A stretch of 64,000 nt of DNA from Myxococcales bacterium (lineage in GTDB: Bacteria; Myxococcota_A; Bradymonadia; REDH01), in NCBI GenBank assembly GCA_947496715.1, contig CANMDT010000002.1, positions 3,398 through 67,397 of the forward strand, given 5' to 3'. How positions within the stretch are numbered: the stretch's first letter is position 1; the number at the start of each line of letters is the position of its first letter. The notes under the pieces were generated by a model. The model saw only the letters and a program-made list of their open reading frames with translations, did not search any database and was not told the DNA's origin. Positions 5,492 to 37,452 of the stretch are shown one piece after another. Both the position numbers and the translations under genes were made by a program.

Positions 5492-5567
5492 AGCTGGCCT
5501 GTGCGCGGGGCAAGCGGAGCAGATAGTCGCGGTAGGCAGAGGGCGAGTGAGGTCCGTGACCAATCCC

Positions 5568-5814
5568 TGCCCCAACGGGGCAGAGCATACCAGCCCAGGG
5601 CAACGCCCTGGGGATCATGCCACGCAAATTTCCGCATGCTATCGGAACGCCGCAGTTCGTCGCATCACCCTCCCGCGCCCGAACGATTCCCCGCGCCCGA
5701 ACGATGCGGCGCTCCTTCAGAGCGCATCCACACCCTCCATCCCATGCCCCGCGTGCATGCCCACCATTCCCAGGGTTGCACCCTGGGCTGGTATGCGTTG
5801 ACCCTTTGGGTCAA
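5568..5814. mobile_element. MITE-like element, copy 2 (contains a ~25-bp internal insertion relative to copy 1)
   Basis: Same terminal inverted repeats and terminal hairpins as copy 1. Preceded by the same ~70-bp spacer that follows the intact SDR gene. Confidence 0.55.
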
Positions 5815-5821
5815 ACGGATC

Positions 5822-5839
5822 GCAGCCCTGCAGGGCTGC
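5822..5839 (-). terminator. Perfect 18-nt GC-rich palindrome (gcagccctgcagggctgc), candidate terminator stem ~50 nt downstream of the giant gene stop
   Basis: Perfect inverted repeat seen directly in the sequence. On the minus strand the stem is followed by GAUCCGUUUG, a weak U tract. Could act bidirectionally. Confidence 0.35.
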
Positions 5840-5887
5840 GCTACCGATGGCCCGCTTACAAGGGTCAAGGGTTCACTGCACCGCCCT

Positions 5888-14278: not shown

Positions 14279-14284
14279 GGGAGA

Positions 14285-14495
14285 TCTTCCAGAGGCATGG
14301 TCCTAGCGCGCGAGCGAAAGCCAGATTGTAAATGAGGATTGGCTTACAAACGTAACCGAAAGGTCATACGGAATCAAAAAAGGAGCGCCGAGATAGTTTG
14401 ATCGTCCGCAGTCTCGAATCAGATAAAATCTAGAATGACTCTCGAAATGTGTGTTCGAAAATCTAACAAATGTATGTAATTTTCCATTCTATCGT
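14285..14495 (-). promoter_or_regulatory. AT-rich island (GC far below the ~70% background), presumed promoter/leader of the giant gene. Contains inverted repeat TTGTAAatgaggattggcTTACAA (14326-14349).
   Basis: Lies directly upstream of the minus-strand start at 14278. The compositional contrast is visible by eye (…gtaaatgaggattggcttacaaacgtaaccgaaaggtcatacggaatcaaaaaagg…). Confidence 0.45.
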
Positions 14496-14498
14496 GGC

Positions 14499-14578
14499 TC
14501 CTTCAGAGCGCATCCATACCCAACATCCCATTCCCAGGGTTGCACCCCGGGCTGGTAGGCGTTGACCCTTTGGGTCAA
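14499..14578. mobile_element. MITE-like element, copy 3 (right-hand ~80 bp only; left part missing at the junction with the AT-rich island)
   Basis: …cttcagagcgcatcca…cccagggttgcaccccgggctggtaggcgttgaccctttgggtcaa matches the right half and right inverted repeat of copies 1 and 2. Confidence 0.5.
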
Positions 14579-14616
14579 ACGGGACCCGGCGCTCTTCGCA
14601 GCTCAGCCTAGGCGAC

Positions 14617-14798
14617 GGCGCCTCCTTCGTGGCAGTCGATGTGACCGACGAGGCCCGCATGAAAACCACCGTCCCCAACCCCAGCCGGCTCGGCAAGCCC
14701 GATGAGTATGCCCAGCTGGCCTGTGCCATCATCGACAACGGCTACCTCAACGGCGAGGTCATCCGCCTCGATGGCGCGCTCCGGATGCCGCCGCGGTA
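14617..14798 (+). pseudogene. Second copy of the internally deleted SDR gene fragment
   Basis: [17 protein letters not shown]|[43 protein letters not shown] shows the same internal deletion junction as 5309-5491. Confidence 0.7.
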
Positions 14799-14858
14799 GG
14801 GCAACGCGTACCGCAGTTCTTGCGAACCGCCGAGTTCGACAGGTAAACTGCGGGCGCC

Positions 14859-17800
14859 ATGACGACCCCTGTACATTTTGGACCCTTTCTGGTGCGCGAG
14901 CGGATCGGTGTAGGCGGCTTCGGCGAAATCTACCGCGCGGTGCATCAGGAGGCTGGCCTCGAAGTGGCGATCAAGGTTGTGACTGCGGAAGTAGCGCGTC
15001 ATCCATCATATCTGAATGATTTTCGTAGGGAAGTTCGTGCCGTGGCCGGGCTGGACCACCCGAATATCGTTCAGGTCTTTGACTACGGCACCATCCCTTC
15101 GAAGGCCGCCGCTGCACTCCCAAGACTGGTCGCTGGTAGCCCCTATCTCGTGATGGAGCTCGCTTCGGGTTCCGTAGCCGACCTGCCGATGCCAATGGCA
15201 TGGCAGACCTGCAGGATGCTCCTCCACGACCTGCTCTCTGCGCTCGGCCATGCCCATTCGAGGGGACTGGTTCACCGAGACATCAAGCCTGGAAACACGC
15301 TACTCGTCGATGGACGCGAAGGACGCATCGTCAGGCTCTCTGACTTTGGCATCGCCCAGAACTGGGGAGTCAAGGATGGCGGCGTTGAGCTGGACGCTGC
15401 GGTAGGCACCCCGTTTTACATGGCTCCGGAGCAGTTCGCCGCGCGCTGGCGCGACTTCGGCCCCTGGACCGACCTTTATCAGGTCGGAATCTTCGCCTTC
15501 GAGATGGCCTTTGGAGTGTACCCCTTTCAAGCTGACACCTTCATGGGTTTCGGGCTGCAGCACCTTCGCGCACCGCTGCCGCGCATGCCGGTTCCCGCCG
15601 GCTACCCGGCAGGTTTTGGTGACTGGCTCCAGACGATGTGCGCGAAGGAGACCCGAAGGCGCTTCGCCTCTGCGGCAGAAGCTGGTTGGGCGCTCGCAGC
15701 ACTGGAGGACATGGGGCGGCCCGAGCCAGACGCGGAAGGCCGCGGGCGCACGGAGTTTGGCGTGTTTCGCAGGAGACGCGCAGACTTGGGTGCCTTCGAG
15801 GCGACACTGGGAGGTAGGATCGACGGCGGCGGCCAAACGCTGATGTTCGATCCGTCACTCACCGACAGCCTTGCAGATCATCCTGTCCAACAGGAACCGA
15901 CGACCCATGGGATTCCGTGGCAGCCGGCGCCGATCGAGGGGCAGACGGGAAGCGCGGGCGCCCGTCTCGGCAGCGTCGGTGCGGGACTCTTCGGGCTGCG
16001 AACCATCCCCATTGTGGGTCGAGAGGCAATTCAACAGCAGTTGTGGGCGGCGCTGCGGAAGCGACACCTCAAGCGAGAGCCTGCCGCGGCGCTGCTTGGA
16101 GGCAGCGCGGGCGTTGGCAAGAGCAGACTCGCAGCGTGGCTCACCGACTCTGCCACGGAGCTGGGATTGGCATCATCCGTGGTCATCCGGAGCGGTCCCG
16201 AAGAGGGCAGCGGCCTGCTGGGCCGGACCGTGGCCGAACGCTACCGCTGCAATGGGTTGAAGCGGCTGGAGGCACGGCTTCGTTTGGAGCAAGTGCTCGC
16301 GGAAGAGGGTGTTACGGATCGTGCAGAGGTTGAGGGTCTGGTTGCTCTCGTGAGCGAGGGCCTTGCGGGAGTCGAACCGCCAGAAAGCAGCGCACGAACC
16401 ATCAGGTTCGGTAGCCCGCTCGAACGACAGGCGGTCTTTGAACAGCTGCTGAGACGAGCCGCTGCGCGACAGCCGGTTCTGGTCTGGCTGGATGATGCCC
16501 ACTTCGGCGGAGAAGCACTCGCAGCCATGGTTTCCATTGCGCGTCAGGCACGAGACCTTCCCCTGCTCACCCTGGTCACCTTCCGCGAAGACCTGCTCGA
16601 AGACCGACCGGTTGAACGGGCGCTGCTCGAGGAGCTGGCAGCGCACTCCGCGAGCACGACCATCATCGTGCCGCCTCTGGATGAAGAGGCGCAACATGAG
16701 CTGGTCGCTCGGATGCTGGGGCTGAGTGGAGCGCTGGCGGCGAGTATCCGAATGCGTGCAGCTGGCAACCCCCTGTTCGCGGTGCAGCTTGTCGGCGATC
16801 TCATCGCGCGAGGCGAGCTTGTTGGCAGGCCAGGCGGCTTCTCGCTGCGAACCGGGATAACGCTCCGACTCCCGAACGATGTTCGTTCACTTTGGCTCGG
16901 CCGCATCGAGCAGGTCGTGTCGGAATCGGGACCCGATGTGAAGGTTGCGCTGGAGCTTGCGGCCCTGCTCGGTGTCAGTGTCGACGGTCAGGCGTTCGCA
17001 GAGCTGAGCCGGCGTGTGGGGCTGATCGACGGTTCAGCGCTTCTGGGCTCGGTCGCGGGCACCGGTCTGATCGAACAGACCTCGGTCGGTTGGCGCCTCG
17101 CGCACCCGCTCCTGCGGGACACTCTCGAGCGCGAGGCGCGGACCCGGATCGACTGGATGGACTGGAACCACGCCTGCGCGGAGGCGCTCACTACCATCTA
17201 CGATCGGGGCATGCGTGGCCTATCCGCGCGGCGGGCAGGCTACCTCGCCGAGGCCCTTGCGTGGGACGAGGCACTAGAGGCGATCACAGAGGCCGTAGCA
17301 GAGGCACTTCACGCGGGTGAGACACTACCCATCCCGGAGCTGCTCGACCGGCAATCCGAGATTTTGGACGCGCTCCGAGTGCCGAGCTGTGATCCTCGTC
17401 GGGCAGAGGCGCTGTTGACGCGGGCAGAGGCCTACCGGCTGCAGTGGAACTTCGGTGCAGCGGCAGAGTGGGCTGACCTTGCGCTGGCGGCGGCAGACCG
17501 CGCAAGCAGCCCCCGGCTGCGGGGCGAAGCCTACCTTTGTCGAATGCACATCGCACGCCAGCAGGGTGACAGCGGGCAGGCAGAGGTTCTTGCCACGGAG
17601 GCGCTGACGACCTTCCGCACCTTGGACGACGGCCGCGGCCTCGGACGCACCTATCTCGGCTTGGCCATTCTGCTCCGGACGCAGGGCCGTATCACGGAGG
17701 CCTTGGGAAACTACGAGCGCGCCCTGGCAGAGTTTGTCGAGATTGGTGACGAAGTGAGCGCGGCGCGCTGCCGGCTCGGGGTGGCCCACCTGCATCGCGG

Positions 17801-18401
17801 TCAGGGCAGGCATCGACAAGCATTGGCACTCTATGAAACTGCGCTCGAGAGGTTTGAATGCGAAGGGGTCCGGAACGAGGTGATTCAGGCGCGGGTGGGG
17901 CTCGCAGAGGTCGCCCGCTTTGAAGGTCGCCTCGAGGAGGCTCGGCAGGCCTACGAAGAAGCGCTAGGGCTTCAGCGAGCGATTGGGGATCGGAGCCTTT
18001 CGATCACCCGCTGCAACCTTGCGCTGGTCGCACTTTCGCAGCGTCAGTTTGCTGTTGCTCGCCGGCAGCTCGAACTGGCGGAGACCGAGATGATTCAGGC
18101 CGGACAGCGCGGGACACTGGTCTATGTGCAGGTCTTGCTGCTGGCCTGCATCGCCGCAGCGGGTGAAAAGGCGCTCTGGGAGCGACAGCTTGCAGCGGCA
18201 GCGAAGGCGTTGGAAGAGACCGGAACGGTGGACCTGGACCTTGCAAAGGCGCTGGAACTGGCCGGCGCATTGATGATGGAGCGAGGTCTGAAGGCACGAG
18301 CCAGAGATGGCTGGCGGCTCGCGCTAGCCCAGTTCAAGAAGCTGGAGGACGAAAAGGGCGCGGCCCGGATCGGACTGCTGCTCGTCTCGACGGAAAGCTG
18401 A
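14859..18401 (+). CDS. Ser/Thr protein kinase fused to a STAND-type P-loop ATPase and C-terminal TPR repeats
   Basis: Kinase glycine loop GVGGFGEIY, catalytic HRDIKPGN, DFG. P-loop GGSAGVGKSRL near aa ~410. Multiple TPR-like repeats at the C-terminus (…ALGNYERALAEF… / …ALALYETALERF…). Confidence 0.9.
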   Translation: MTTPVHFGPFLVRERIGVGGFGEIYRAVHQEAGLEVAIKVVTAEVARHPSYLNDFRREVRAVAGLDHPNIVQVFDYGTIPSKAAAALPRLVAGSPYLVMELASGSVADLPMPMAWQTCRMLLHDLLSALGHAHSRGLVHRDIKPGNTLLVDGREGRIVRLSDFGIAQNWGVKDGGVELDAAVGTPFYMAPEQFAARWRDFGPWTDLYQVGIFAFEMAFGVYPFQADTFMGFGLQHLRAPLPRMPVPAGYPAGFGDWLQTMCAKETRRRFASAAEAGWALAALEDMGRPEPDAEGRGRTEFGVFRRRRADLGAFEATLGGRIDGGGQTLMFDPSLTDSLADHPVQQEPTTHGIPWQPAPIEGQTGSAGARLGSVGAGLFGLRTIPIVGREAIQQQLWAALRKRHLKREPAAALLGGSAGVGKSRLAAWLTDSATELGLASSVVIRSGPEEGSGLLGRTVAERYRCNGLKRLEARLRLEQVLAEEGVTDRAEVEGLVALVSEGLAGVEPPESSARTIRFGSPLERQAVFEQLLRRAAARQPVLVWLDDAHFGGEALAAMVSIARQARDLPLLTLVTFREDLLEDRPVERALLEELAAHSASTTIIVPPLDEEAQHELVARMLGLSGALAASIRMRAAGNPLFAVQLVGDLIARGELVGRPGGFSLRTGITLRLPNDVRSLWLGRIEQVVSESGPDVKVALELAALLGVSVDGQAFAELSRRVGLIDGSALLGSVAGTGLIEQTSVGWRLAHPLLRDTLEREARTRIDWMDWNHACAEALTTIYDRGMRGLSARRAGYLAEALAWDEALEAITEAVAEALHAGETLPIPELLDRQSEILDALRVPSCDPRRAEALLTRAEAYRLQWNFGAAAEWADLALAAADRASSPRLRGEAYLCRMHIARQQGDSGQAEVLATEALTTFRTLDDGRGLGRTYLGLAILLRTQGRITEALGNYERALAEFVEIGDEVSAARCRLGVAHLHRGQGRHRQALALYETALERFECEGVRNEVIQARVGLAEVARFEGRLEEARQAYEEALGLQRAIGDRSLSITRCNLALVALSQRQFAVARRQLELAETEMIQAGQRGTLVYVQVLLLACIAAAGEKALWERQLAAAAKALEETGTVDLDLAKALELAGALMMERGLKARARDGWRLALAQFKKLEDEKGAARIGLLLVSTES

Positions 18402-18470
18402 GGAGAAAGCTTGGCCACGCAGCGAACCGGCGTGCTAGAACCCCTCCAACAGGCTCTGCAGGTGAGGACG

Positions 18471-20558
18471 ATGAAGGGAACGAAGGCAATTGTTTCAATC
18501 TTCCTTGTGGCCGCTGCGGCTGGTTGTGCGGCACCTGACGATGGCCCTGCGGAAGTGGCAGGGGGTGGGCTGGCCGCGACGTGCACGAAGCCGTTCGAAG
18601 CGACAGACACAGTCTCGCCGGAAGCGCTCACCACGAGATTGGCGACCGCCGTCGCCGGCGAGGTGATTCGGGTCACACCGGGGACGCTGCAGGGGTCGAT
18701 CGTTGTCCCCGCGGGTGTGGTCCTGCTGGGCGATGGCGTGGAGGTTGTCGCCGAGGGGGGTGCTGGGCTGCGCTTAACGGGCGGTTCGGCGACGCAGCCA
18801 ACGGTGATTCGGGGCTTCACGGTGCGCACCATCGAAGGAGCGCCACCCGTAGCAGCCGTAGTCGCAGTCGGCGGCGACGCGCTGGTGCTCAGCGATCTCA
18901 AGTTAGCATTGAGCACCGGTGCAGGTATCATCAGCGAGGGGGTTCGAGATCTTCAGATCTGCGGCACAGAGATCGCTGGTGGGCTCGACGAGGCGAACTT
19001 TGCGGCACTGAGCGACCTCCCGACTGTTGCTGCAACAGACGCAGCCATTCTGGGGTTGGTAGTGACGGCGGGCGAGCGACTCACAAAGGCCGGGGTCGAT
19101 ATCCGCGATCTGGTCATCAGGAACATCGCCGGGTTCGGTGCCGCCTTTGTCGACACGGAGGCGGCGTGGGCACAGGGCCGCGTGGAGGGATGTGCGGGGA
19201 CCGGCATCTTCCTCTCCCGCTCGACCCACGGCTGGACAGACGTCGTGGTGACCGGAGGCCGCGCCAGCAGCACGGGCAGCGCTACCTTCCAGACCGGGTG
19301 GGGGGTGGTGAATACCGAGGCCTCTCGGCTCGACACCGATGGTCTGCAAGTTGTAGGCATTCCCGGCTTCGGCGTCTTCCAATCCGGGTCGCGCAGCCAG
19401 CATCTTGGAGCTCGCATCGTTGCGAACACGATGCGGGGCGTCCTCGTGCAGGAAAGCCTCTCCAACAGTATCGACGACCCGGAACTGCTCTTTGACCAGG
19501 CAGTGATTGCAGGCAACGGCGGAGCAGGCATCCAGGTCATCGACGGCGGCGGCGTGGTCTTTCAGAATGGCATCATCGCGGAGAGCAGATCGCTGCCGAC
19601 GCTGAACGGCGGATTCGGCGATCTCGTGGGCACGATCAGCGACGGAATCCAGCTCAATAGCGTCAGCGCGACGTCGGTCGGCACGCAGCTTCGGGCGGAC
19701 CGAGCCGTCATCTACGGAAACGGCAAGGCCGGGATCAACGCGGCAGGGACGGGAACACAACTGCTCTCGGAGGGGAGCGCCGGACTGTCGGTCTGCGGTA
19801 CCACCGAGCTCGACACGGCGCGCTGGACCTGCAACCTAACTGCCGAGGAAGGCTGGGACTGCCTCCGCGAAAGAGGGCCCTCGGTTTCAGAGGGTTGGCA
19901 GTGCAGCGACACAGGTGGCGCGACGGTCTGCAGCAGCAGCGACCCGGCACAGGCGGTGGCACAGACACCCGGCTTTGCTGTGGTTAGCCCGTCGGATGGC
20001 CTGCCCTCCTTCTGCCGGTCGGCGGCAGAGTCGATCGTGGGCGAAAACGGGCTGGTCGTCTCGACTGGTGTGGCAGCGGCCGGCAGCGCGACTGGGTTTC
20101 AGAAGGCTACGCCGGGAGCCGTAGGCGTTGGTTACGACTGGCGTTGCCGCAGCGAAGCCGGAGTTCGCATCTGTACGATGCAAGAGTTGGATCGTCTCGC
20201 GGTGGACGATGCCGACAACCCATCGCTCACCCAGGGATCGGGCTGGAGCTGCTCCTACACCGAGACCGGGCGCCGGTGTCTGTGGGGAGGTTTCGGGATT
20301 GTCACAGGGGGAGATGTCGTCGGGAGCGCCGGGTTTTTGGCCAATGTAGAGCCTCGGATCATTGATCGTGACCAGCTGGTGAGATCCGGCCTGATCGCGC
20401 CACCGGGCATGGAGTTGCGGCGCGATCCGACGACCGTTCCGGCGCTCCGCGGTGGCGCCCGCTCCATCGTCGGCGAGAATGGACTTGTAAATCCGGACGG
20501 GTCACTCGGCAGCCGTGCGATCGTCGGAGAGAACGGGGTGGTGGGAGAAGACGGCTGA
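18471..20558 (+). CDS. Secreted right-handed parallel beta-helix lipoprotein, short paralog. C-terminal Cys-rich region and Gly-rich tail.
   Basis: Start at MKGTKAIVSIFLVAAAAGC (lipobox) with GGTGAGGA RBS. Beta-helix repeat signatures (…NGGAGIQVIDGGGVVFQNGIIA…). C-terminal W/C-rich segment then …IVGENGLVNPDG…IVGENGVVGEDG. Paralog of 61809-63809. Confidence 0.8.
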   Translation: MKGTKAIVSIFLVAAAAGCAAPDDGPAEVAGGGLAATCTKPFEATDTVSPEALTTRLATAVAGEVIRVTPGTLQGSIVVPAGVVLLGDGVEVVAEGGAGLRLTGGSATQPTVIRGFTVRTIEGAPPVAAVVAVGGDALVLSDLKLALSTGAGIISEGVRDLQICGTEIAGGLDEANFAALSDLPTVAATDAAILGLVVTAGERLTKAGVDIRDLVIRNIAGFGAAFVDTEAAWAQGRVEGCAGTGIFLSRSTHGWTDVVVTGGRASSTGSATFQTGWGVVNTEASRLDTDGLQVVGIPGFGVFQSGSRSQHLGARIVANTMRGVLVQESLSNSIDDPELLFDQAVIAGNGGAGIQVIDGGGVVFQNGIIAESRSLPTLNGGFGDLVGTISDGIQLNSVSATSVGTQLRADRAVIYGNGKAGINAAGTGTQLLSEGSAGLSVCGTTELDTARWTCNLTAEEGWDCLRERGPSVSEGWQCSDTGGATVCSSSDPAQAVAQTPGFAVVSPSDGLPSFCRSAAESIVGENGLVVSTGVAAAGSATGFQKATPGAVGVGYDWRCRSEAGVRICTMQELDRLAVDDADNPSLTQGSGWSCSYTETGRRCLWGGFGIVTGGDVVGSAGFLANVEPRIIDRDQLVRSGLIAPPGMELRRDPTTVPALRGGARSIVGENGLVNPDGSLGSRAIVGENGVVGEDG

Positions 20559-20565
20559 GAGCTGC

Positions 20566-23500
20566 TCAGGGCTGCGTGATGCAGAACGGGCGAGGGGAGC
20601 ACTGCTCGTCTTGGCAGTCGATCGTCCCGTCCCCGTTGTCGTCTTCTCCATTCGAGCAGTCTTCCCGCTGGCTCGCGAGCGGCTCTGCCTCACTCGGGTC
20701 TGCCGTCTGCAGTTCTGCAAGCGCTGCTTCGATGTCGGGAATCTCGAGTTCGCTCACACCGAGGTCGAGGCCGTTCTGCTCGTATCGCTCGTTGCGAAGG
20801 GCCACCGCGAGTTCGGTCCGGGAGAAATCACTCCCCATGACGTTGATGCCGATGAGATTGCCTCGAATCAGTGCATCACGAAGCTGGATCGAAAGTCCAT
20901 TGCCATAGAGCTGCAAACCGCAGCGGGGATTCTCGCGCAGACGGAGCTGCGTGCCGTCGAGCGTCGCCCCATCGCCAAGGACCAGTCCGTCGCCGTAGCG
21001 GAGCTGGCGCTGCTCGTCTTCGACAGGGAGAGTAGCGTCGATGTCCAGGTGATCGAAACGAAGGGTCGCCTGGGCTCCGCGGACATGAAGCGCCGTCGCT
21101 CGGTTCCCGCGCAGGCTAGCCCCCTGAAGCGAGATGGAGGCATCTTCAGCGCGGATGCCTGCGGCACGACCGCGCTCGTCCGCGGAGAGGAGGTTCGCGC
21201 GCGAATCGACCGGGCCGATATCCTTCACCACGAGCCGTTCCCCGGCCAACGACGAGAGAGGGTCTGCAACGATCAGTCCTGACCGATCAAACCCGCGCAC
21301 CAAGACATCTTCAAGCGAGAGACTGCTCCCTCGTTCAACCACAATCCCGTCTGCGAGCAGCTGGGTCTGCTCTTCGCGCCAGCCCCCCGTTCCGTCGACC
21401 AGCAGCCGCTCTCCGACCCCTACTGCCGGCAGGCCATCCGCTCCTTGCAGACGCCAGGCCCCGGCCGAGGAGCGGAAGACGACATCACGGAGCGTCAGGT
21501 CACTGCCCACTGTCTGCGCCGCTGAGGCCCTGTCGAAGCGGGCCGTATCCACAGTGGCCACCGCATCACCATCGAGCAGCAGCAGTGGAAGCTCAGGCAA
21601 AGAGGGCGCATTTCGGAGGAACAGACCGTCGATCGAGGCGCGCGCACCCAGGGTGAGCTGAAGCGGTGCCTCGCTCTGCAGCGAGCTCGCCGTCAGGTTG
21701 GCTCCCTCGAAGTAGAGGCGACCGAAACCTTCACCTAGAACTGCTTCGGCATCGGGTGTTGCAGCAAACAGGGCACGGCCGACAGAAACGTCGGTGAGCT
21801 GGACGGTACCGCCCATGGCAACGAGGGAGTCACGATTGTCTCCGAGGCGCGAACGTGTGAGTTCGAGGCTGCTCTCCGCATCCACAAACAGCGCCACCTC
21901 ATCGTTTCGTGTAATGAAGGCATCGTAGAGGCGGAGGTGCGACCCGGTTTCGATGCTCACTCCACGGCCAGCAGAGCTTGCTCCTGCATCAGCGGCGAGG
22001 TGGTCGACCCTCGCCCCGGTTATGGTGACCTCACTGTCGTAGAAGATCGCCGCCGGCCGAGCATTTTGGAGCAGCGTGAGTCGCTCGAAGACTGCTGAGC
22101 TTAGCGAGAGATCGAGCAGGCTCTGGGTGTTTGGTGATTCACCCGCGCCGCCCTCCGTGATGGCAATCCCCGCTCCATCGGCGTTGCTGCTCCAGAGGCT
22201 CAGGGCCGCCCCTTCGCTCCCGCTCACGACCAGATCGAAGAGGTGCAACGAAGATCTGTATGCGTAGAGTGCCACAGCCTGCTGCCCACGCAGGAGAGCG
22301 GTCTGCAGCGTGACGTCAGGGCCAGCGAATTCGCTGCCCCACGGAAGGAAGAGATGGAGTCCGTCGGCGCCACCAAGGACGGTTAGGTTCTGAGCGGTCA
22401 TGATGATCGGCAACAGCGACGGTTGCACGTAGATCGCAGCCTGCCCCGCGCCGGCCATGAGCAGGTTCTCAAAGCGAGTCACACCGCCCGAGATCTGCAA
22501 TCCAAACCACTGGCTCGCCACCACTGCAACCTCGGTCACCGGCGCTTCAAGGTCGATATCGATGACAACCCCGTAGGCGGTCTCTGCAACAAAAATCTGC
22601 GTGAGTGAAACCTGCGCCGCGAGCTCCGCTGCGTCTGCCACAACCACCGCCGTGCCGTCTGTTTGCCGGACCACCGCTCGGCGCAGGCTCGCCTCAACAC
22701 CATCAAGCGCGAGACAGGTAGATGCCGATGGATCGGTTGCGCAGCGCTCCGCCGCGAATTGGTTGAGCTCGAGCTGACCCCAGACGGCTGAAAGGGCTGC
22801 ACCTTCGACGTCTCGCACGACAAGGTCGTCGATGGTCGCACTCACATCGCTCAGCGAGAGGCCGTCAAGCCGGTAGGGACTCGGGCCAGCGCCACGCACT
22901 TCACAGCGCTCCAGCGTCAGGTTCATCGGAGCCGCAACCAGCCCGAAAACGGTGTCGTTGGCGGTTGCGGAGAAGCCCGCGTCGAAGAGCGCCAGATCGC
23001 GCAGCGCGACCTCCGTTCCCCCCATCAGGCCTACGCCTATCGACCACGGAAAGGTTGGATGAAGCGATGGGCTGTCGACCACCAACCGCGAAAGATCAAC
23101 GCGCGTCACCCTCCCGTCGGGCGCGTCGACCCACAGACCAGCATGCTCCAGGCGATCAATCAGGATACCTTCGCCCGTCACAGTTGCACCATAGCTTGCA
23201 ACCAAGCCACCTCCGGAGAGCACGCCGGACTCGAGATAGACCGGATTCAGATCCAATGTGACGCCGGAAACGCGGATGTTCGTGAGGTGCAGTCGGCCTG
23301 CATCAGTCACAGCGATACCACGCTGAAAGGCGCGCGTGACCTGCAGATCGTGGAGACGATGAACGACTCCCTCTTCGGGAGACCCACGCACAACAACACC
23401 GTTGGTGGCTGCATCGATGGCGAGGTTGGCCACAAGCGACCCGAGCGCGCCGGTCATCGAGACCGCACCAACATCGACGTAGTCTCCTTCGGGCACAAGG

Positions 23501-24423
23501 CGCGTGCCGCCCACACAGGCACCCACGAGCGCCACTCCGTCGTCGAGCTCCACAATGTCAGGATAGTCACCGAGCGCCATCGCAATGATGGCACCTGGAG
23601 GGACCTCATTGAACAGGTAGGTAGCTCGGTTGAGGCTCATGGGATCGAGCCGGCTGCCGTCGCCCGAGCCATCGGGGGAGACGAAGACGATGGGACCATC
23701 GAAGCCGGGGGCCATCGCTCGTAGGGCTTCATCCGTGGGCCAGCGCTCGGCTGCCGTCGGACAGGGTTGGCCGAGGGGGAGGCAGGCAGTGTCGCCGGGG
23801 AGGGCGATGGTCCCGGGAGGGCAGTCGCGAGGTACATCGGGAGGCTCACAGCGACGAAACGAGATTCGCTCGGCTCCGGCCACCGGCAGCCCGGAGTCGT
23901 CGAGGGTTGCGTCGATGGGCCGCCAGCCAACCGGGCAATCCCAGTCCTCGAGGTTGGGGAGACAGGTGCCAGTACCCGGCGCGAAGCCCGAATCTTCGAA
24001 AATCTGACCGCTGCTGCAATCTTCGGGTCGACTGCCCGTCGGGCGGAGATCACAATCGTCAGTGGCGCAGCTCGATGGTGGTACGGGCAGGCAGAGTCCG
24101 GTTCCAGGTTCGAAGCCCGATCCATCGTCAATCTCGCCGCTCGCGCACTCATCGGGCCTGAGCCCCTTCGGTCGCGCGGGGCAGGCCGCCGCCGCGACTC
24201 CGTCAATCCAGCAGGAGCCCTCGTCCACCTCCTCGCCGGAATCAATCTGCGAGTCGCCAAGGTCAGTATCGGCCGTCTCGGTCGGACCGGTATCAACCGT
24301 TGCCCCGGTATCAGCTTCGACGCGGTTCGATACCGGCTCATCACAGGCCGACAGCAGCAGGCCAAGGATCGTCGCGGTGAAGCGGAGTGAGGCGGAGCAG
24401 AACGCAGTTCGCTTAAACATCAT
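20566..24423 (-). CDS. Large parallel beta-helix lipoprotein (1285 aa), long paralog. Conserved Cys-rich N-terminal module. C-terminal CxxGxDDxGDGxxDC metal-binding-like motif.
   Basis: Lipobox LLLSAC. N-terminal module (…C.SG.I.D.SGF.PGTG.C.P…DWDCP.GW…RCEPP…DCP…) is shared with 43394-45973 and 46072-48846. Long run of ~45-aa beta-helix-like repeats. Ends …CSNGEDDNGDGTIDCQDEQC…. Confidence 0.8.
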   Translation of the reverse strand: MMFKRTAFCSASLRFTATILGLLLSACDEPVSNRVEADTGATVDTGPTETADTDLGDSQIDSGEEVDEGSCWIDGVAAAACPARPKGLRPDECASGEIDDGSGFEPGTGLCLPVPPSSCATDDCDLRPTGSRPEDCSSGQIFEDSGFAPGTGTCLPNLEDWDCPVGWRPIDATLDDSGLPVAGAERISFRRCEPPDVPRDCPPGTIALPGDTACLPLGQPCPTAAERWPTDEALRAMAPGFDGPIVFVSPDGSGDGSRLDPMSLNRATYLFNEVPPGAIIAMALGDYPDIVELDDGVALVGACVGGTRLVPEGDYVDVGAVSMTGALGSLVANLAIDAATNGVVVRGSPEEGVVHRLHDLQVTRAFQRGIAVTDAGRLHLTNIRVSGVTLDLNPVYLESGVLSGGGLVASYGATVTGEGILIDRLEHAGLWVDAPDGRVTRVDLSRLVVDSPSLHPTFPWSIGVGLMGGTEVALRDLALFDAGFSATANDTVFGLVAAPMNLTLERCEVRGAGPSPYRLDGLSLSDVSATIDDLVVRDVEGAALSAVWGQLELNQFAAERCATDPSASTCLALDGVEASLRRAVVRQTDGTAVVVADAAELAAQVSLTQIFVAETAYGVVIDIDLEAPVTEVAVVASQWFGLQISGGVTRFENLLMAGAGQAAIYVQPSLLPIIMTAQNLTVLGGADGLHLFLPWGSEFAGPDVTLQTALLRGQQAVALYAYRSSLHLFDLVVSGSEGAALSLWSSNADGAGIAITEGGAGESPNTQSLLDLSLSSAVFERLTLLQNARPAAIFYDSEVTITGARVDHLAADAGASSAGRGVSIETGSHLRLYDAFITRNDEVALFVDAESSLELTRSRLGDNRDSLVAMGGTVQLTDVSVGRALFAATPDAEAVLGEGFGRLYFEGANLTASSLQSEAPLQLTLGARASIDGLFLRNAPSLPELPLLLLDGDAVATVDTARFDRASAAQTVGSDLTLRDVVFRSSAGAWRLQGADGLPAVGVGERLLVDGTGGWREEQTQLLADGIVVERGSSLSLEDVLVRGFDRSGLIVADPLSSLAGERLVVKDIGPVDSRANLLSADERGRAAGIRAEDASISLQGASLRGNRATALHVRGAQATLRFDHLDIDATLPVEDEQRQLRYGDGLVLGDGATLDGTQLRLRENPRCGLQLYGNGLSIQLRDALIRGNLIGINVMGSDFSRTELAVALRNERYEQNGLDLGVSELEIPDIEAALAELQTADPSEAEPLASQREDCSNGEDDNGDGTIDCQDEQCSPRPFCITQP

Positions 24424-25500: not shown

Positions 25501-26499
25501 ATGAGACCCCCTCGTCTTGCCCTGCTCATGCTGCTCACCACCGCCTGCGGCGCCCCCTGCAAGCCCGCGCAGGGCAGCACGGTGGTTGCAGCACCAGCAC
25601 CAGCCGCGACGACGCCCGCGCCCGAGGTTCGTGGGGAGGCGAGCGGCGACGCCGACGGCAGCGGCGATGGCAGCGGCGACGGCAGCGGAGCCTGCGGCCA
25701 CTACGCCGATCCCATCCGGCGGGGCGAGCTGCCTGCGGTGCTCGACGAGGCCTCGGGGCTTACGAGCAGCCGCTGGTCCGGCGACCGCATCTGGGCCCAC
25801 AACGACTCGGGCGACAGCGCCCGCCTCTTTGCCCTCGACCGCTCCGGCAAGCTGCTCGCCACCGTCTCGCTCGAAGGGGCCAAGTCGAAGGACTGGGAAG
25901 ACATCGCGCGCGGCCCCTGCGCCCCCGGAGAAGCGGCTCGCAGCTGCCTCTATGTGGCCGACATGGGCGACAACAAAGAGAAGCGGGATGAGGTGCGCTT
26001 CTACCGCTTCGCGGAGCCCGAGAAGCTATCTGCGGAGATGACGGTGAGCGCCTTCGAGACGATGGAGCTCCGCTACCCCGGCGGGCCGGTCAACGCAGAG
26101 GCAATGTTTGTGGATGAGCAGGCGCGGGTGGTCATCCTGAGCAAGGAGGAGGACCAGACCAGCATCTTTGTGGCCCCCTTCGCAGCCGGAGGTCCGGTGA
26201 CAGCAACCAAGGTTGGCGAGCGGAAGCTGGCTGGGGGGAACCTCTTTGTGCGGGAGCTGGTGACGGCTGCCGATTACGATGCATCGCGGCGCCGGGTGGC
26301 CTTCCGAACCTACCACCACGCCTACGAGTGGCGGCTGCCTGCAGGGGCTGGCGCAGAGGCGCTCGGCGCGCTTACACCCGAGGCGCTGCCGCTGGCGCTG
26401 GAGCCACAGGGCGAGGCCATCGCCTACCTGCCTGGCGGGCTGGTGACGACCTCGGAGACGGCCGGTTCGCCGCTCTTCTACTACGACTGCCGGCCCTAG
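25501..26499 (+). CDS. Secreted hypothetical protein (signal peptide; possible lipoprotein)
   Basis: N-terminal MRPPRLALLMLLTTACGAPC, then a low-complexity linker and a globular domain with no motif I can name confidently. Coding-like composition. Confidence 0.65.
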   Translation: MRPPRLALLMLLTTACGAPCKPAQGSTVVAAPAPAATTPAPEVRGEASGDADGSGDGSGDGSGACGHYADPIRRGELPAVLDEASGLTSSRWSGDRIWAHNDSGDSARLFALDRSGKLLATVSLEGAKSKDWEDIARGPCAPGEAARSCLYVADMGDNKEKRDEVRFYRFAEPEKLSAEMTVSAFETMELRYPGGPVNAEAMFVDEQARVVILSKEEDQTSIFVAPFAAGGPVTATKVGERKLAGGNLFVRELVTAADYDASRRRVAFRTYHHAYEWRLPAGAGAEALGALTPEALPLALEPQGEAIAYLPGGLVTTSETAGSPLFYYDCRP

Positions 26500-26508: not shown

Positions 26509-29500
26509 CTAGTAGCCCGACTTCCAGGAGAGCAGCGCCATGGGGGTTCCGTCGACCACCTCGGCGCGGAAGCGGAGGGTGCGGCTGCGCTCGATCATGG
26601 CGAGGCAGGCGAGCGGCATGACCTCGTCGCCAAAGGCAGCGAGTCGGTCTGCAGAGGTCCCCTTCTCGCCGAGCGCGCGGGTGAGGAGCTTGACGAGGGG
26701 GCGGCCGGAGAGGGGGCCGGAGGGGCGCTCCTCCTTGGACTCGGCCTCGGGCGCGGCGCTCTCTTCGGTCTCCGTGATGGCGGATTCGTCGCCCTCGGGG
26801 AGTTCGCCGGCCTGAGCCTCGACGGCTTCGGCCGCGGGCTCTTCGCCTGTGACGAGCGTGGGTGCCGGCTTGGGCTTGCTGGCCCGGAGCAGCGGCATGC
26901 AGATGGCGTTGCGGCGGAGCTCCATCTTGGGCTGCAGCTCGTGCTTCTGCTGCACGGCGACGAGCAGCGAGATCCAGACGGCGAGGTCGGTGCGGTCGAG
27001 CTCCACCCACTCCTGCTCGAGGTAGTCAGTGGTGAGGAGGTGGTGGGGGTCTGCGAGCCGCATGCCGGCCGTTGCGGCGGTGGACTCGATGACGGGGATG
27101 ATCTCGCGGCGGAGGTCGAAGCTACCGGGCGCAAAGTCGCGCACGCGGCGGAGCATGGGCAGGGTGGCCCAGACGATGGTCGGGTCGACCTCGCGGAGGA
27201 GCGAGAGGGCGAGCGCGACACCCTTGGCGAGCTCCTTGCGGGCGCTCTTGCGGGTGCTGCGGGCCAGCTTCTCGTCAACGGTGACGGCCTCGTTGCGGCG
27301 TCCGCGCGGGGCGCGCTGTGCAGCAGCGGGAGCAGCTGCATCGGTGGTCTCTTCGGCGGGTGCGTCGGAGGCAAAGGATGGCTCGTCCGTGGAGGCTTCT
27401 GCGGTCTCGGCGGAGGCCTCGACAGAGGATTCCTCGGCGGGTGCGTCGGAGGCAAAGGATGGCTCGTCCGTGGAGGCTTCTGCGGCCTCTGCAGCGATTG
27501 CTTCGGCAGAGGCGGCGCGCTCCTCTTCGACCTCTTCGGCCGTCTGATGGGCAACAGGCGCGTTCGCAAGCGCCCGCTCGAGCGCCTCCAGACGAGCGAT
27601 GAGCGGAGCCACCTCGGCGGCCGGCTCTGCGGCATGCTGGAGTACGGCGGTGACCGCCTTCACAACGGCACGCTCAAGGGTTGCAAAGCTGCCGGCGCCG
27701 GTGATGGCCGAGGCCACCAGGCGGGTCCCGGCGCGCTTGCCCTGCGGGCCCTCGAAGTCGGCGTAGGGGAAGCTCTCGGAGGCCAGCGCAAAGGGGAGTG
27801 CTTCGAGCGCAGCGAGCAGCTCCGACTCGGCGTTCCCAGCGGTGAGCTGCTGCTCGAGGAGCGGAGCGATGGTCGCGGCCGTGCGCTCATCGGTGAGCCA
27901 GGCGAGGAAGCCGACGAAGTGGCGAGAGCCGTTGTCGAGCGACCAGCGGAGCGCCTGCGATGCGAAGCTCTCGACCGTCTTTCCGGAGGTTCCGAGCTGG
28001 GCGAGGCGCCAGCCGTCGAGCGCCTGCGCGAAGCCCTCGGGCAGGTAGCGGGCGGGGCGGTAGCGGGCGAAGGCCTGCTCGAGCGCGGCGCGGGGGGCGT
28101 CGAAGCGGTCGCCCATGCGGCCTTCGAGATCGCGGAGGGCGACGGCGGAGGTACGAAGAGCGGCGCCGCCCTGTGCGGTGGCGAGGGCAGAGGTCCAGAG
28201 AGCGAGCGCAGCGTCGCGTTCGCCGAGCGCGTGGCGCTGCATGAAGCCGACGGCGGCGGCGGGCTGGTTGCCCTCGAGGAGCAGGTTGAGCCGCTCGGAT
28301 GCGGGCCACTGTGTGTGGGCCGCGATCTGGTTCATGACGAGGTCGCGCTGGGGCTCGGAGAGGCTCTTTGCGGCGAGCTCCAGGAGCATGATGACGGCGG
28401 CCTCGGGGGCGGCGATGCACTCGCCGCGGGAGCTGTCGAAGAAGCCTGCGAAGGCGGCGCCGCAGGACCAGTTCTGGTCGCCGGCGGGCTCGAGGAGCCA
28501 GCGGACGCTGACAGCATTCTTGGCTCGGTCGATGGCGCAACGGACCCACTCAACGCGGGCGCGGGCAGCAGCCAGCGAGGTGGCTGGGGCGAGGGTGTGG
28601 CCGAGCTCGGCGAAGGCTTCGCTGCGGACCATCTGGCCTCGGGCAGGGCTGCGGCGGATGCTCTCGAGGAGGCGGGGGAGTTCGTCGACCGGCGTGCGGG
28701 CGATGAGCTGCGGGAGCCGTGCGGCGAGGGCGTCGCCATCGAGCTCGGCGAGGTTGATGACGAGGTCGTGGTAGCGCTCCGCGCCGGGCGTTCCCGGTGC
28801 TTCGGCGAGCAGGCCGTCGAGCGCGGTGGCGGTGGCGGTGCCCCAGACGGGCGAGCCCTTCACCTCGGTCTGCGCCTTGCGGGAGACCTGGCGGGCGAGC
28901 GAGCCGACCTCGATGAGCTGCTTGACGGAGAGGTCGCCGGCGCTGGGTGCGAGCCGCTCGAGGAAGTCGAGGTAGCGGGCGCTGTCGCTGGGGTCGATGG
29001 AGCGGCAGAAGGCGCGCCAGTAGAGGAAGTGGCGGAGCAGCGGCGAGCTGCCGGCGAGTTCGGGTGCGCGGAGCGGGAGCCCGATGATGGGGTTGCCGGC
29101 GGCCGCGCGTGCGACGGCGTGGTCGACGATGGCGGAGGAGAAGGCGAGCGACTCGCGGGAGATGGCCTTGGCGGCGACGGCGGCCTCGAGGCGCTGGCTG
29201 ACTGCCGCATCGGAGGCGGCGGCATCACCGGTGGCGGTGAAGAGCTCGCCGAGCTGACGCATCATGGGATGGTCGGCGTGGAGCAGCGCCTCGCAGAGGC
29301 TGGCAGCGGCCGGGTGGGCGCCGCCGGCGACGCGACCGTAGGCGCGGCAGATGCCGATGGTGGGCATGTCGGTGATGAGGTTGGCCGCGAGGTGGCGCGC
29401 ATCGGCGCGACGGTCGCGGAGCTCGGCGCCGCGGTAGCTCCAGGCGGTGAGGAGGTGCTCATAGCGGGCGAGCCAGGTGCGCGCGGCAACGGGGAAGCCC

Positions 29501-30804
29501 TTGAGCCGGGGGATCATCACCTTGAAGGCGCGGAGATGGTCGAGCTTGGGGCGGGGGAGATCGCTGGCGACCTCCGCTGCCGCGAGGGCGCGGAAGACCC
29601 GCTCGAGATCGCTCTCTTCCTGCGGGAAAAAGCCGAGCTCGCGGAGCGCCCGCTTGAAGCCGGCGCGGGTGAAGGGGAGCTCGGGGAGCGGCGCGTCGGG
29701 GTGGCCGTAGAGCTCCTGGCGACGGGAGATGTCGCGGAGGTAGCGGGCCGCCGCAAAGAGGGTCAGCGCAGGCCACTGGCCCATGCGATCGGGGCGGGGT
29801 CCGAAGAGGCCGACGAGCCAGGTGATGAGGGTGCCGAGGTGGGGACCGGTCTTGAGGGGCGACTCGGCGCGAAGGAGCGGGTGGAGGGCGTCGAGCAGGG
29901 TGCGGGTTGCGGCGCTGGTGGCGGCCCGGTCGGCGGGCGGCGTGTGCAGCAGCGCGAAGAGGGCCTGCAGGAGCGGCGCGACCTCGGGGACGAGGTTCAG
30001 GACGGTGCCGGCGAGGTGGCTGCGCTCGGCGTGGGTGGCATGCATGAGGCCGATGCCGGCGCGGTGCAGGCCGTGTCCGTTCTCAACGAGGGCGCGGCGG
30101 GCGAGCTGGTTGGGCGCGCTCTGATCGTCGGCGACCTTGGCGAGGTAGAGGAGGGTCTCGGTGATGGCGCTGGAGCCGTGCTCCTCTTCGGCAGCCTTGG
30201 AGCTGGCGACCATCATGCGGTCGTTGCCGGGCTGCAGCGTGGCCTTGAAATGGATGCTGGTGACGGGGTCGAGGAAGGGGGCAAGGAGCCCCTGGTCGAG
30301 CTCGGCGGCGGTAGCTGCGATACCGGCAGTCATGGGCAGCCAGGGCGGCCCCTCGGCGAGCGGCGACTTGACGAGGAAGGCGGCATGGAGGCCGGGCTGC
30401 ACGAAGTTGTCGGGGCCTGCGCGGAAGAAGGCGGCCGGGTCGTCCCAGAGGGCGTAGAGCGAGGCCTCGTTGAAGACGAGGTCGCGTCCGATGAGGTGGA
30501 GGCTCCCTGCGTGGCGCAGGTAGAGACCGGGCCGGAAGAGGGCGACGTCGCGGTGGGGCTGCCAGCGGAGGGGGAAGTAGCCGAGGGTCACGGGTGCGAC
30601 GAGGCAGGCACCGGGCCGGATGAGGAGGAACTCGAGGTCGGGCGGCGGCGGCTGGCGCTCTTCGCGCTGCGGGGGACGGCCGCCGTTGCGGTTGTCGCCG
30701 TTGCGGGGGCCACGCTGCTGGTTGCCCTGCTGCTGGCCGCCGGGTGCACCCTGGCGGGGGGAGTTCGAGGCGGGGCGATCGGAGCGGTCGGTGGGCTTTG
30801 CCAT
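26509..30804 (-). CDS. Large cytoplasmic orphan protein (~1432 aa) with acidic repeat region
   Basis: Long minus-strand ORF with protein-like composition. The overlapping plus-strand 1306-aa ORF is G/A/E/R-rich antisense junk. Start chosen at MAKPTDR (30804); an upstream in-frame ATG at 30924 is possible. Contains an 81-bp in-frame tandem duplication (…EASTDEPSFASDAPAEE… x2). Confidence 0.6.
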   Translation of the reverse strand: MAKPTDRSDRPASNSPRQGAPGGQQQGNQQRGPRNGDNRNGGRPPQREERQPPPPDLEFLLIRPGACLVAPVTLGYFPLRWQPHRDVALFRPGLYLRHAGSLHLIGRDLVFNEASLYALWDDPAAFFRAGPDNFVQPGLHAAFLVKSPLAEGPPWLPMTAGIAATAAELDQGLLAPFLDPVTSIHFKATLQPGNDRMMVASSKAAEEEHGSSAITETLLYLAKVADDQSAPNQLARRALVENGHGLHRAGIGLMHATHAERSHLAGTVLNLVPEVAPLLQALFALLHTPPADRAATSAATRTLLDALHPLLRAESPLKTGPHLGTLITWLVGLFGPRPDRMGQWPALTLFAAARYLRDISRRQELYGHPDAPLPELPFTRAGFKRALRELGFFPQEESDLERVFRALAAAEVASDLPRPKLDHLRAFKVMIPRLKGFPVAARTWLARYEHLLTAWSYRGAELRDRRADARHLAANLITDMPTIGICRAYGRVAGGAHPAAASLCEALLHADHPMMRQLGELFTATGDAAASDAAVSQRLEAAVAAKAISRESLAFSSAIVDHAVARAAAGNPIIGLPLRAPELAGSSPLLRHFLYWRAFCRSIDPSDSARYLDFLERLAPSAGDLSVKQLIEVGSLARQVSRKAQTEVKGSPVWGTATATALDGLLAEAPGTPGAERYHDLVINLAELDGDALAARLPQLIARTPVDELPRLLESIRRSPARGQMVRSEAFAELGHTLAPATSLAAARARVEWVRCAIDRAKNAVSVRWLLEPAGDQNWSCGAAFAGFFDSSRGECIAAPEAAVIMLLELAAKSLSEPQRDLVMNQIAAHTQWPASERLNLLLEGNQPAAAVGFMQRHALGERDAALALWTSALATAQGGAALRTSAVALRDLEGRMGDRFDAPRAALEQAFARYRPARYLPEGFAQALDGWRLAQLGTSGKTVESFASQALRWSLDNGSRHFVGFLAWLTDERTAATIAPLLEQQLTAGNAESELLAALEALPFALASESFPYADFEGPQGKRAGTRLVASAITGAGSFATLERAVVKAVTAVLQHAAEPAAEVAPLIARLEALERALANAPVAHQTAEEVEEERAASAEAIAAEAAEASTDEPSFASDAPAEESSVEASAETAEASTDEPSFASDAPAEETTDAAAPAAAQRAPRGRRNEAVTVDEKLARSTRKSARKELAKGVALALSLLREVDPTIVWATLPMLRRVRDFAPGSFDLRREIIPVIESTAATAGMRLADPHHLLTTDYLEQEWVELDRTDLAVWISLLVAVQQKHELQPKMELRRNAICMPLLRASKPKPAPTLVTGEEPAAEAVEAQAGELPEGDESAITETEESAAPEAESKEERPSGPLSGRPLVKLLTRALGEKGTSADRLAAFGDEVMPLACLAMIERSRTLRFRAEVVDGTPMALLSWKSGY
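27340..27500. repeat. 81-bp perfect-core tandem duplication inside the orphan-protein gene (27-aa acidic repeat)
   Basis: gggtgcgtcggaggcaaaggatggctcgtccgtggaggcttctgcgg occurs at 27358-27404 and 27439-27485. Confidence 0.8.
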
Positions 30805-30960
30805 GAGACTGCGTCTGCTGGTTCGGGTGTGTGCGCGCGGCACGGGAGCGGCGGTTGCTAGCACGAAGGGTGGGAGGTTGCGAGAGCGGCGGTTCTGCTT
30901 GCGGTTGGCGAGGCAAGCGATCATGCACGCAAGACTCTTTCACCCCGTGCGTCCTCCCCG

Positions 30961-37396: not shown

Positions 37397-37452
37397 ACGG
37401 GGCCAGCAGAGAGCGATGCCATGTTTCGGGGCGGGCCAAAAGTTTGCGCCGA
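37397..37452 (+). promoter_or_regulatory. ~56-bp conserved motif, copy B
   Basis: cagagagcgatgccatgtttcggggcgggccaaaagtttgcgccgatcggcagg, 61 bp upstream of the AMIN/coiled-coil gene start. Confidence 0.4.

Follow-up and report, generated by a model that had tools for sequence, protein, structure and literature searches.

Five beta-helix genes in two families

The window, as we call the whole 64,000-nucleotide stretch of DNA that was analysed, carries five genes for proteins with a lipoprotein-like N-terminus, and all five open reading frames are present as claimed in an earlier, sequence-only reading. Two are short-family genes on the plus strand, shortA (positions 18471–20558, 695 amino acids by translation) and shortB (61809–63809, 666 amino acids). 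Three are long-family genes on the minus strand, long1 (20566–24423, 1285 amino acids), long2 (43394–45973, 859 amino acids) and long3 (46072–48846, 924 amino acids). ShortA and long1 are convergent, with stop codons 7 bp apart, and long3 and long2 lie in tandem with a spacer of 98 bp.

A signal-like N-terminal segment with a terminal cysteine was found in all five proteins, in agreement with the lipoprotein-type signals proposed for them. Tested against the pattern [LVI][ASTVI][GAS]C closing the signal peptide, the lipobox is canonical in long1 (LSAC, Cys27) and acceptable in shortA (AAGC, Cys19), and position -3 is non-canonical in three of the five (CSGC in long2, SMGC in long3, SSGC with Cys24 in shortB). 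Among 31 homologs, many of them with canonical boxes, the lipobox cysteine hardly ever varies. Both families are probably Sec-exported and lipid-anchored; the three non-canonical boxes count against this reading.

All five are right-handed beta-helix proteins, as had been suspected. The Pfam Beta_helix model (PF13229, gathering cut-off 25.9 bits) scored at or above its cut-off for four of them (long1 26.3, long2 47.5, long3 55.6 and shortB 38.7 bits); shortA scored a sub-threshold 17.2 bits, and is 47% identical over 657 residues to shortB, which passes. The structure predicted is a three-stranded right-handed solenoid, which places the proteins in the beta-helix fold. The long2 model (pLDDT 90.9, residues 50–180 included) terminates in a capped helix.

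On sequence comparison, the five genes form two distinct families, which appear only remotely related to each other, and not the single paralogous family of five that had been described. No short protein matched a long one in BLASTP at E<1e-3, and the short forms lack the N-terminal module of the long ones. The families are linked by profile–profile comparison alone (hhalign 92%, E=5e-7, 174 beta-helix columns). Mutual identity of long1, long2 and long3 is 28–33%. The long identical blocks attributed to the short pair are visible in their alignment.

Proteins of the long family consist, in this order, of the lipobox cysteine, an acidic Gly/Ser tether of about 25–45 amino acids, a Cys-rich head, a DUF1565-like cap, a repeat rod and a conserved C-terminal cap. 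In long2, the signal peptide, acidic Gly/Ser tether, Cys module and N-cap are followed by a rod of ten aligned double-coil repeats of about 54 amino acids and the C-cap. The Cys-rich module with its linker occupies residues 71–247 of long1 (23683–24213, minus strand), residues 52–184 of long2 (45422–45820, minus strand) and residues 58–185 of long3 (48292–48675, minus strand). Module and linker (RWPDEA..R..AP..GPI.Y) are conserved position by position, and the similarity is not merely one of composition, as local alignment scores lie 21–37 SD above those of composition-preserving shuffles (z=21–37). The length of about 150 amino acids given for the module fits long1 (151 residues), though only because the first half, i.e. 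the first sub-domain, is duplicated there (two module domains were reported by hmmsearch); it is too long for long2 and long3 (103–109 residues). The proximal head sub-domain is universal in the long family, and the distal one can be absent or occur twice. The head would be a disulfide-rich structure of two sub-domains with 9 cysteines, plus one more in the first helix coil. Regional identity among the long genes is 44–54% in the module, 43–52% in the N-cap and 22–32% in the body.

A profile search with the module found 439 protein clusters at E<=1e-3, and the module was N-terminal in 149 of 150 among the matches listed. The idea of one head on diverse bodies was not borne out: in a Pfam scan, 51 of 55 sampled module-bearing proteins carried Beta_helix, and no unrelated domain type was seen among the 55. 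The long family is one fixed architecture, and its module is not shuffled among bodies of other kinds. It is also lineage-restricted. In a search with a 14-sequence profile, the closest MAG contigs came from Lakes Mendota and Erken and from a Ki3 sample and were labelled Bradymonadia bacterium or delta proteobacterium, which bears out the myxobacterial host proposed before; the DNA belongs to an uncultured, Bradymonadia-like freshwater bacterium of the Myxococcota. The exact long2 protein was not on record, and a 92% relative (P0001) was used as a stand-in; long1 has an ortholog of 79% identity (P0048). A fourth long member of 771 amino acids lies 2.3 kb past the end of the window, near shortB. 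A scan of viral contigs found no relatives.

That the proteins are undescribed holds as well, since the sources give members no name beyond "hypothetical protein" or "right-handed parallel beta-helix repeat-containing protein". A literature search on Bradymonadales and beta-helix found no paper, and for the N-module, sequence searches of Pfam, NCBIfam and PDB gave no meaningful match. Near its C-terminus, long1 contains a single copy of an acidic double-disulfide repeat-like motif (residues 1251–1281; 20581–20673, minus strand), which matched NCBIfam NF033662 with E=1e-6 and 28.3 bits, under the 41-bit cut-off.

Binding stalks or enzymes

Conservation in the long family is concentrated at both ends and at structural Gly, Asn and hydrophobic repeat positions, and the invariant columns of the body are mostly Gly/Asn. 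From this pattern we infer envelope-anchored rigid binding stalks rather than enzymes. Binding stalks are our best guess from the sequences, and a glycan or a cell surface would most likely be the ligand. For the complete proposal, i.e. two remotely related beta-helix lipoprotein families of which the long one comprises anchored stalks with a recombining 5' cassette, we see about an even chance. Many of the top structural matches are enzymes, and some relatives match DUF1565, Pel9A-like or NosD models; both were counted against stalks.

Alternatively, the long proteins, the short proteins or both could be envelope-anchored polysaccharide-active enzymes (lyase, hydrolase or epimerase), which we regard as possible but rather doubtful. 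Their targets would be the envelopes of prey, the biofilm matrix or exopolysaccharide made by the cell itself, and the bodies would have diverged with their substrate specificities. Carbohydrate-active enzymes and phage depolymerases predominate in this fold class, and the DUF1565, Pel9A-like and NosD-type matches of relatives point the same way. A secreted protein with a PNGase-F C-terminal domain and FGE-sulfatase-domain proteins are encoded nearby. In the short family, polar blocks (SRSQHLGARIV, DPELLFDQ and VFQNG) are strongly conserved and could form an active site.

The search for catalytic motifs speaks against enzymes. DPHD is the catalytic motif of the alginate C5-epimerases AlgG and AlgE, and GH28 polygalacturonases and pectate lyases are marked by NTD, G/QDD and RIK or by vWiDH. 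The expression [DN]PH[DE] was absent from all five proteins, as were NTD, G[DQ]D, R[IV]K and W[IV]DH; only trivial GSG/GHG-type matches were found, in low-complexity tethers. The earlier idea of polysaccharide-lyase-like proteins thus found no lyase or other catalytic signature in the motif search. In addition, the invariant residues of the long bodies are almost all Gly or Asn, the body is built of regular tandem repeats and lacks the irregular loops and groove typical of active sites, and the adhesins Vag8, PfbA and pertactin, which are not enzymes, are matched equally well in structure. The argument from a lack of conserved catalytic residues is weak, however, because the repeat register is unreliable at 25–35% identity and only a few motifs were tested.

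Compared with other PF13229/PbH1 beta-helix proteins, the long family adds a lineage-specific disulfide-rich head without a counterpart in Pfam, NCBIfam or PDB, a body built as a very regular tandem double-coil repeat of 54 amino acids, and a lipobox anchor with acidic tether. Identity to AlgE4, AlgG and phage capsule depolymerases or tailspikes is 10–14%, and the window proteins differ from these in the missing DPHD. Unlike Vag8, pertactin and PfbA, they have neither a C-terminal beta-barrel translocator nor LPXTG (autotransporter domains had no Pfam match at E<=1 in the five proteins) and their anchor, should they have one, would be a lipid at the N-terminus, i.e. with reversed membrane polarity.

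Mosaic genes and arrays

Relatives of long2 are 75–97% identical to it up to residue ~278 and about 30% identical beyond, so that the conserved head and variable body noted previously are even more pronounced than they had seemed. The DNA breakpoint, at nucleotide ~1160, is common to several contigs. The conserved part corresponds to a 5' cassette of long2 (codons ~40–278; 45138–45854, minus strand), which occurs twice in the three-gene array L030. There, positions 7067–10836 correspond to 48910–45138 of the window, and positions 12770–17415 to 45854–41227. Between the two L030 copies, identity is 92% over 714 nt, as against 65% to long3.

Array structures, as read from metagenome assemblies, comprise two long genes (the window, L008, L028), three (L030, and L011 with L007 from Erken) or at least four (L010, where a single contig holds three 5' copies of differing identity). 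The two-gene layout was found repeatedly in independent assemblies. Tandem paralogs would recombine by homology within the cassette, giving rise to mosaic genes and to arrays of two, three or at least four genes. The two-gene array of the window may accordingly be explained by unequal crossover within the shared 714–716-nt cassette, and long2 would be the fusion that a crossover in a three-gene array should yield.

Polymorphism between genomes had been anticipated. Tandem copy number does differ, but a 93%-identical genome is uniformly 93% identical over array and flanks, and the genes are not hypervariable between close relatives. A bolder proposal, which we consider unlikely, casts the long family as a surface-variation system of the cassette type in predatory, uncultured Myxococcota, with the clade-specific short family as a dedicated partner of the long stalks. 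The head, an invariant, disulfide-rich and lipid-tethered anchoring or assembly domain of about 240 residues, would then serve both as anchor and as a DNA homology handle for swapping, duplicating or deleting ancient bodies that are about 30% identical, in tandem arrays. Conserved N-termini with variable C-termini are known from the myxobacterial SitA lipoprotein toxins and from CDI/Rhs. Like these, the long family joins a conserved N-terminal export/anchor cassette to a divergent C-terminal part at a sharp junction, and its genes lie in tandem arrays with copy number altered by recombination. Unlike them, the long family varies in a homologous beta-helix body and not in a toxin domain, and close relatives of the window genes are not hypervariable. 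Neither a toxin domain (Pfam, NCBIfam) nor an adjacent immunity gene was found for the window genes, whose neighbours include an LTXXQ protein, DUF7790 and prmC.

Stronger purifying selection on a critical head, with no recombination, could also produce a step in identity, and the head is indeed the most conserved part family-wide. We give this explanation little chance. Several relatives show, at one common position, a fall in identity from about 90% to about 30% inside some 30 residues, and two uniform orthologs (P0010, P0012) show no step at all. High DNA identity also runs upstream of the start codon, over 327 nt in L011 (92% identity) and from about 100 nt in the third paralog of L010. 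Finally, the L030 genes that share the cassette have different signal peptides, and long2 of the window joins the signal peptide of one to the body of the other.

The short family and its association with long genes

The shortB model is confident for residues ~30–250 and poor beyond ~250, and we therefore draw no conclusion on the fold of the C-terminal region. This region contains four W-x-C-x8-9-C motifs (63075–63536, plus strand), modelled as beta-hairpins with modest confidence for the strand pairs; their cysteine pairs (434/444, 458/467, 533/542, 567/576) are invariant in the family alignment. The C-terminus consists of octapeptide motifs, (I/V)VGE(N/D)G in shortA (20460–20555, plus strand; the protein ends in VVGEDG) and VVGEDG in shortB (63711–63806, plus strand), amplified to about 13 tandem copies in a homolog at L013. 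A PDB sequence search with the octapeptide repeat gave non-significant matches only (E>=0.038), phage tailspike chaperone domains among them. A short protein would consist of a beta-helix unlike the long one, the four hairpin motifs and, at its end, the VVGE(N/D)G octapeptide motif.

The short family looks narrow, being confined in the searches to this clade and one soda-lake MAG. The exact shortB protein is found on 16 contigs, NCBI GCA_947443225.1 among them. Further searches yielded only near-identical shortB orthologs, at limited sensitivity, as the L013 homolog escaped the word-based search.

Short and long genes are close to each other in three arrangements: shortA with long1, shortB with the 771-residue long member (two genes between), and the L013 tandem. 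Around shortA orthologs (60–86% identity), the order kinase, short, long1, prmC is kept. This recurrent proximity suggests a shared role, or short and long genes could be neighbours merely as a leftover of tandem duplication. At four distant long-family genes, the neighbourhoods share no partner gene and contain no short-type neighbour, and an operon-level system is therefore rejected for the wider family.

The short genes do flank about 41 kb, but unrelated genes fill the interval and there is no bracketed locus as had been supposed. It holds prmC, rluA, amt, an ECF sigma factor, permeases and other unrelated genes, and since housekeeping genes lie between the short genes, the bracket is coincidental and not an island. 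That all five genes form one surface-protein system delimiting a 41-kb genomic island is very improbable and already largely refuted. All five are beta-helix and lipoprotein-like, and the remote profile-level link and the recurrent short–long proximity would fit such a system, but short and long forms share neither BLASTP similarity nor the N-module, the fourth long member is located outside the bracket, and in L030 the interval is rearranged with both families retained. Periplasmic NosD-like accessory proteins for metalloenzyme maturation can practically be dismissed, as scores are far too low for TIGR04247 (17–22 bits versus a 300-bit cut-off) and below cut-off for PF05048 (15.5 versus 23.6), nos genes are absent from the window, no ABC partner adjoins, and NosD has neither a Cys-rich head nor 54-amino-acid tandem repeats.

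At present, the long family is best regarded as a well-described uncharacterised family that merits a domain-database entry, and not as a new kind of system. If the reading as recombining, anchored stalks holds, the head would be a new N-terminal domain family, so far seen only in MAGs of Myxococcota type and in every case joined to a beta-helix rod. The arrays would be a concrete case of a conserved 5' cassette driving copy-number change and body exchange in envelope proteins. Cultured relatives of Bradymonadia are predators, and the family would offer a handle on cell-surface diversity in the uncultured freshwater Bradymonadia.

Two families of beta-helix genes

The coordinates and strands proposed earlier for five beta-helix genes are correct: shortA (18471-20558, +, 695 aa), shortB (61809-63809, +, 666 aa), long1 (20566-24423, -), long2 (43394-45973, -) and long3 (46072-48846, -). 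Third-position GC favours coding in all five frames. It is 0.70-0.73 in the block 14859-24423, formed by a Ser/Thr kinase gene (AAA_16/TPR type), shortA and long1, versus 0.83-0.89 in long2, long3 and shortB. Overall GC in this block (0.62-0.66) is below the remaining window, where GC3 is mostly 0.83-0.94, and both drops suggest that the block differs in history or in level of expression. The proposed long3 start (48846, -) abuts that of the longest DUF7790 ORF (48845, +), leaving zero intergenic space. As gene calls on the related contig L028 give DUF7790 398 aa and not 459, the gene probably begins ~180 bp further downstream.

The sequence-only reading had treated the genes as one paralogous family of five; they fall into two families. 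ShortA and shortB are 47% identical (E~1e-177) and the long proteins 28-33% pairwise, and no short protein matched any long one by BLASTP at E<1e-3. A profile of the Cys-rich N-terminal module, searched against the six-frame translation of the window, found exactly three ORFs, long1, long2 and long3. Profile comparison by hhalign matched short with long (92% probability, E=5e-7, 174 helix columns), pairing shortB residues 231-412 with long2 residues 628-825.

The proposed beta-helix fold was borne out, but the fold cannot tell enzyme from adhesin. Pfam gave Beta_helix alone, besides sub-threshold NosD, and NCBIfam added one sub-threshold match only (an acidic double-disulfide repeat at the long1 C-terminus). 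Structural matches were AlgE4 epimerase (30.9), Vag8 autotransporter (30.8), K1 capsule depolymerase (29.3), PfbA adhesin (27.3) and NosD (27.1); the shortB structure model is trustworthy for residues ~30-250 only.

All five N-termini are basic, followed by a hydrophobic segment with a Cys at its end. Long1 has LSAC as its lipobox and shortA has AAGC; the boxes of long2 (CSGC), long3 (SMGC) and shortB (SSGC) are non-canonical at position -3. Among 31 homologs the Cys is nearly invariant, and many have a canonical box. Given both the non-canonical boxes and the near-invariant Cys, we infer that the five proteins are likely lipoproteins. After the Cys comes an acidic tether rich in Gly, Ser and Asp. 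At least five further window proteins and a YHYH protein just past the window end are laid out alike; the arrangement is a trait of the secreted proteins of this genome, not of the short and long families.

The short proteins also contain an octapeptide, (I/V)VGE(N/D)G(I/L/V)x, about three times each in the window (20460-20555; 63711-63806). A VVGE(D/N)G terminus is present in all full-length family members except the homolog on contig L013 (gene 398-2668, +), where the octapeptide recurs about 13 times in tandem (~2000-2400). It had no Pfam match and no significant PDB match; it may form a novel beta-roll or solenoid, or bind Ca2+.

A disulfide-rich head on beta-helix bodies

The architecture is fixed across the long family. 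The N-terminal module, or head, has two sub-domains: a distal one (CW..CP.QPRGS..DCPSG..F..GTG.C.P), absent from distant relatives and doubled in long1, and a universal proximal one (DWDCP.GW...C[ED]PP..DCP.G...PG..C.P.G..CP). Nine Cys in the module and an invariant first-coil Cys (LVGAC) make ten. In the long2 body, ten ~54-aa units, each with two coils, follow one another in tandem, and invariant body positions in a 14-sequence alignment are nearly all Gly or Asn. Among the window paralogs, identity is 44-54% in the Cys module, 43-52% in the N-cap, 22-32% in the body and ~40% in the C-cap. Because module similarity exceeds composition-keeping shuffles by 21-37 SD, it is not merely compositional, and the conserved Cys-rich module claimed earlier stands. 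The head is real, undescribed and disulfide-rich.

A word-based search identified 40 long2 homologs, every one from metagenomes or MAGs. An exhaustive search with the module profile gave 439 representative clusters at E<=1e-3 (108 at E<=1e-10). Among the matches listed, the module lay within about the first 300 residues in 149 of 150, and most proteins had 600-1200 residues. As 51 of 55 sampled module proteins contained Beta_helix (DUF1565 in 11, NosD-type in 8) and none of the 55 an unrelated domain type, the head appears always to be joined to a beta-helix. The module had no sequence relative in PDB and no viral relative. In their sources, Deltaproteobacteria or Myxococcales MAGs, the proteins are named 'right-handed parallel beta-helix repeat-containing protein' or 'hypothetical protein'. 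Freshwater MAGs from Lakes Erken and Mendota and from a Ki3 sample are the nearest genomes, and one is titled Bradymonadia bacterium. The short family is a very narrow one. A protein identical to shortB is encoded by contig CANEWW010000007.1 of GCA_947443225.1.

Recombination in the head-coding cassette

Two homologs, P0010 and P0012, are uniform orthologs with ~70% identity to long2 end to end. Five others (P0015, P0017, P0019, P0020, P0021) are 75-97% identical to long2 up to residue ~275, then abruptly ~30%. With the long2 5' region (327 nt upstream plus 278 codons) as DNA query, similarity stops at query nt ~1160 on several contigs. Identity to the query is 92% for an additional Erken MAG paralog (L011), from the first upstream base on, and 88% for the third paralog on contig L010, where it begins about 100 nt before the start codon. 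The third and fourth L010 copies are identical over 102 comparable nt.

The array of contig L030, 90-94% identical to the window in shared segments, comprises a long3 ortholog, P0015 and a long2 ortholog, and window positions 45138-45854 align to this contig twice. Over 714 nt its two cassette copies share 92% identity (65% with long3), and the signal peptides of the two genes sharing them differ. Window long2 joins a P0015-type signal peptide and tether to a long2-type body, the composition that would be expected from unequal crossover within the shared cassette. Arrays contain two genes in the window, L008 and L028, three in L030 and the Erken MAG (L011 and L007), and at least four in L010. 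Identity is a uniform 93% through the L028 array and flanks, and the exact shortA and shortB proteins occur on 14 and 16 contigs, respectively. These genes show no hypervariability. The tandem arrays are remodelled by recombination within the cassette that encodes the head.

Genomic setting and function

The window carries sufBCD, nfu, SDR, prmC, rluA, amt, permeases, an ECF sigma factor, an LTXXQ protein and many large secreted proteins. It is ordinary chromosome, and the 41 kb said to be bracketed by the short genes are therefore no island. Short-long proximity recurs in three arrangements. ShortA and long1 are convergent with stop codons 7 bp apart, a layout conserved in orthologs of 60-86% identity. 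ShortB is convergent with a fourth long member (771 aa, P0031; contig L022, 14128-16443, -), which has a reduced module and lies 2.3 kb beyond shortB, about 2.3 kb past position 64000, with a YHYH-domain lipoprotein gene and a 248-aa ORF between. In the soda-lake MAG contig L013, a short homolog (36-38% identical) is directly upstream of a long member. Neither a short-type neighbour nor a conserved neighbourhood was found for distant long-family genes.

Compared with window 48910-57801, L030 (3094-7067) lacks DUF7790 and FGE-sulfatase through an amino-acid permease, a beta-lactamase-like gene and most of a VWA/OmpA gene. In their place stand a BNR sialidase-like gene and TerC, so that the long array lies no more than ~4 kb from shortB and the gene upstream of it. 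A ~9.7-kb segment (4967-14665) is missing in the strain contigs L002 and L005 (98-99.5% identical) and present in L001 (99.99% identical). Its single gene (5888-14278, -) encodes a 2796-aa lipoprotein with 179 Cys, four FGE-sulfatase-like domains, DUF4215 and MopE-like motifs, and it is bounded by a ~125-bp direct repeat (~4845-4970 and ~14671-14796) duplicating the SDR gene 3' end. A 1388-aa protein with no Pfam match (37444-41610, +) has about 4-7 tandem 159-bp (53-aa) repeats at 40150-41260 (88-93% identity), Ala/Glu/Lys/Gln-rich and coiled-coil-like in appearance; copy number probably differs in L030. Further ORFs without a Pfam family (304-1471 aa) are 26509-30924 (-), 25501-26499 (+), 59550-61697 (+) and 36446-37360 (+). 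Two such ORFs (332 and 715 aa) have a lipobox, and the 715-aa one is directly upstream of shortB, as in L030.

The short and long proteins would be lipid-tethered rods in the cell envelope. Because both ends are conserved, the repeats are regular and catalytic signatures are absent, a binding or spacer role seems likelier than catalysis; the signatures sought, in a crude test, were those of AlgG/AlgE, GH28 and pectate lyase. That the proteins are enzymes is less likely, the short family, which carries conserved polar blocks, being the better candidate. The sequence-only reading is partly confirmed as an observation, in its module and fold and not in its single family, and partly supported as an interpretation. 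We regard the genes as encoding repeat proteins of the beta-helix type, whose head is specific to the lineage and whose arrays change by way of the cassette.
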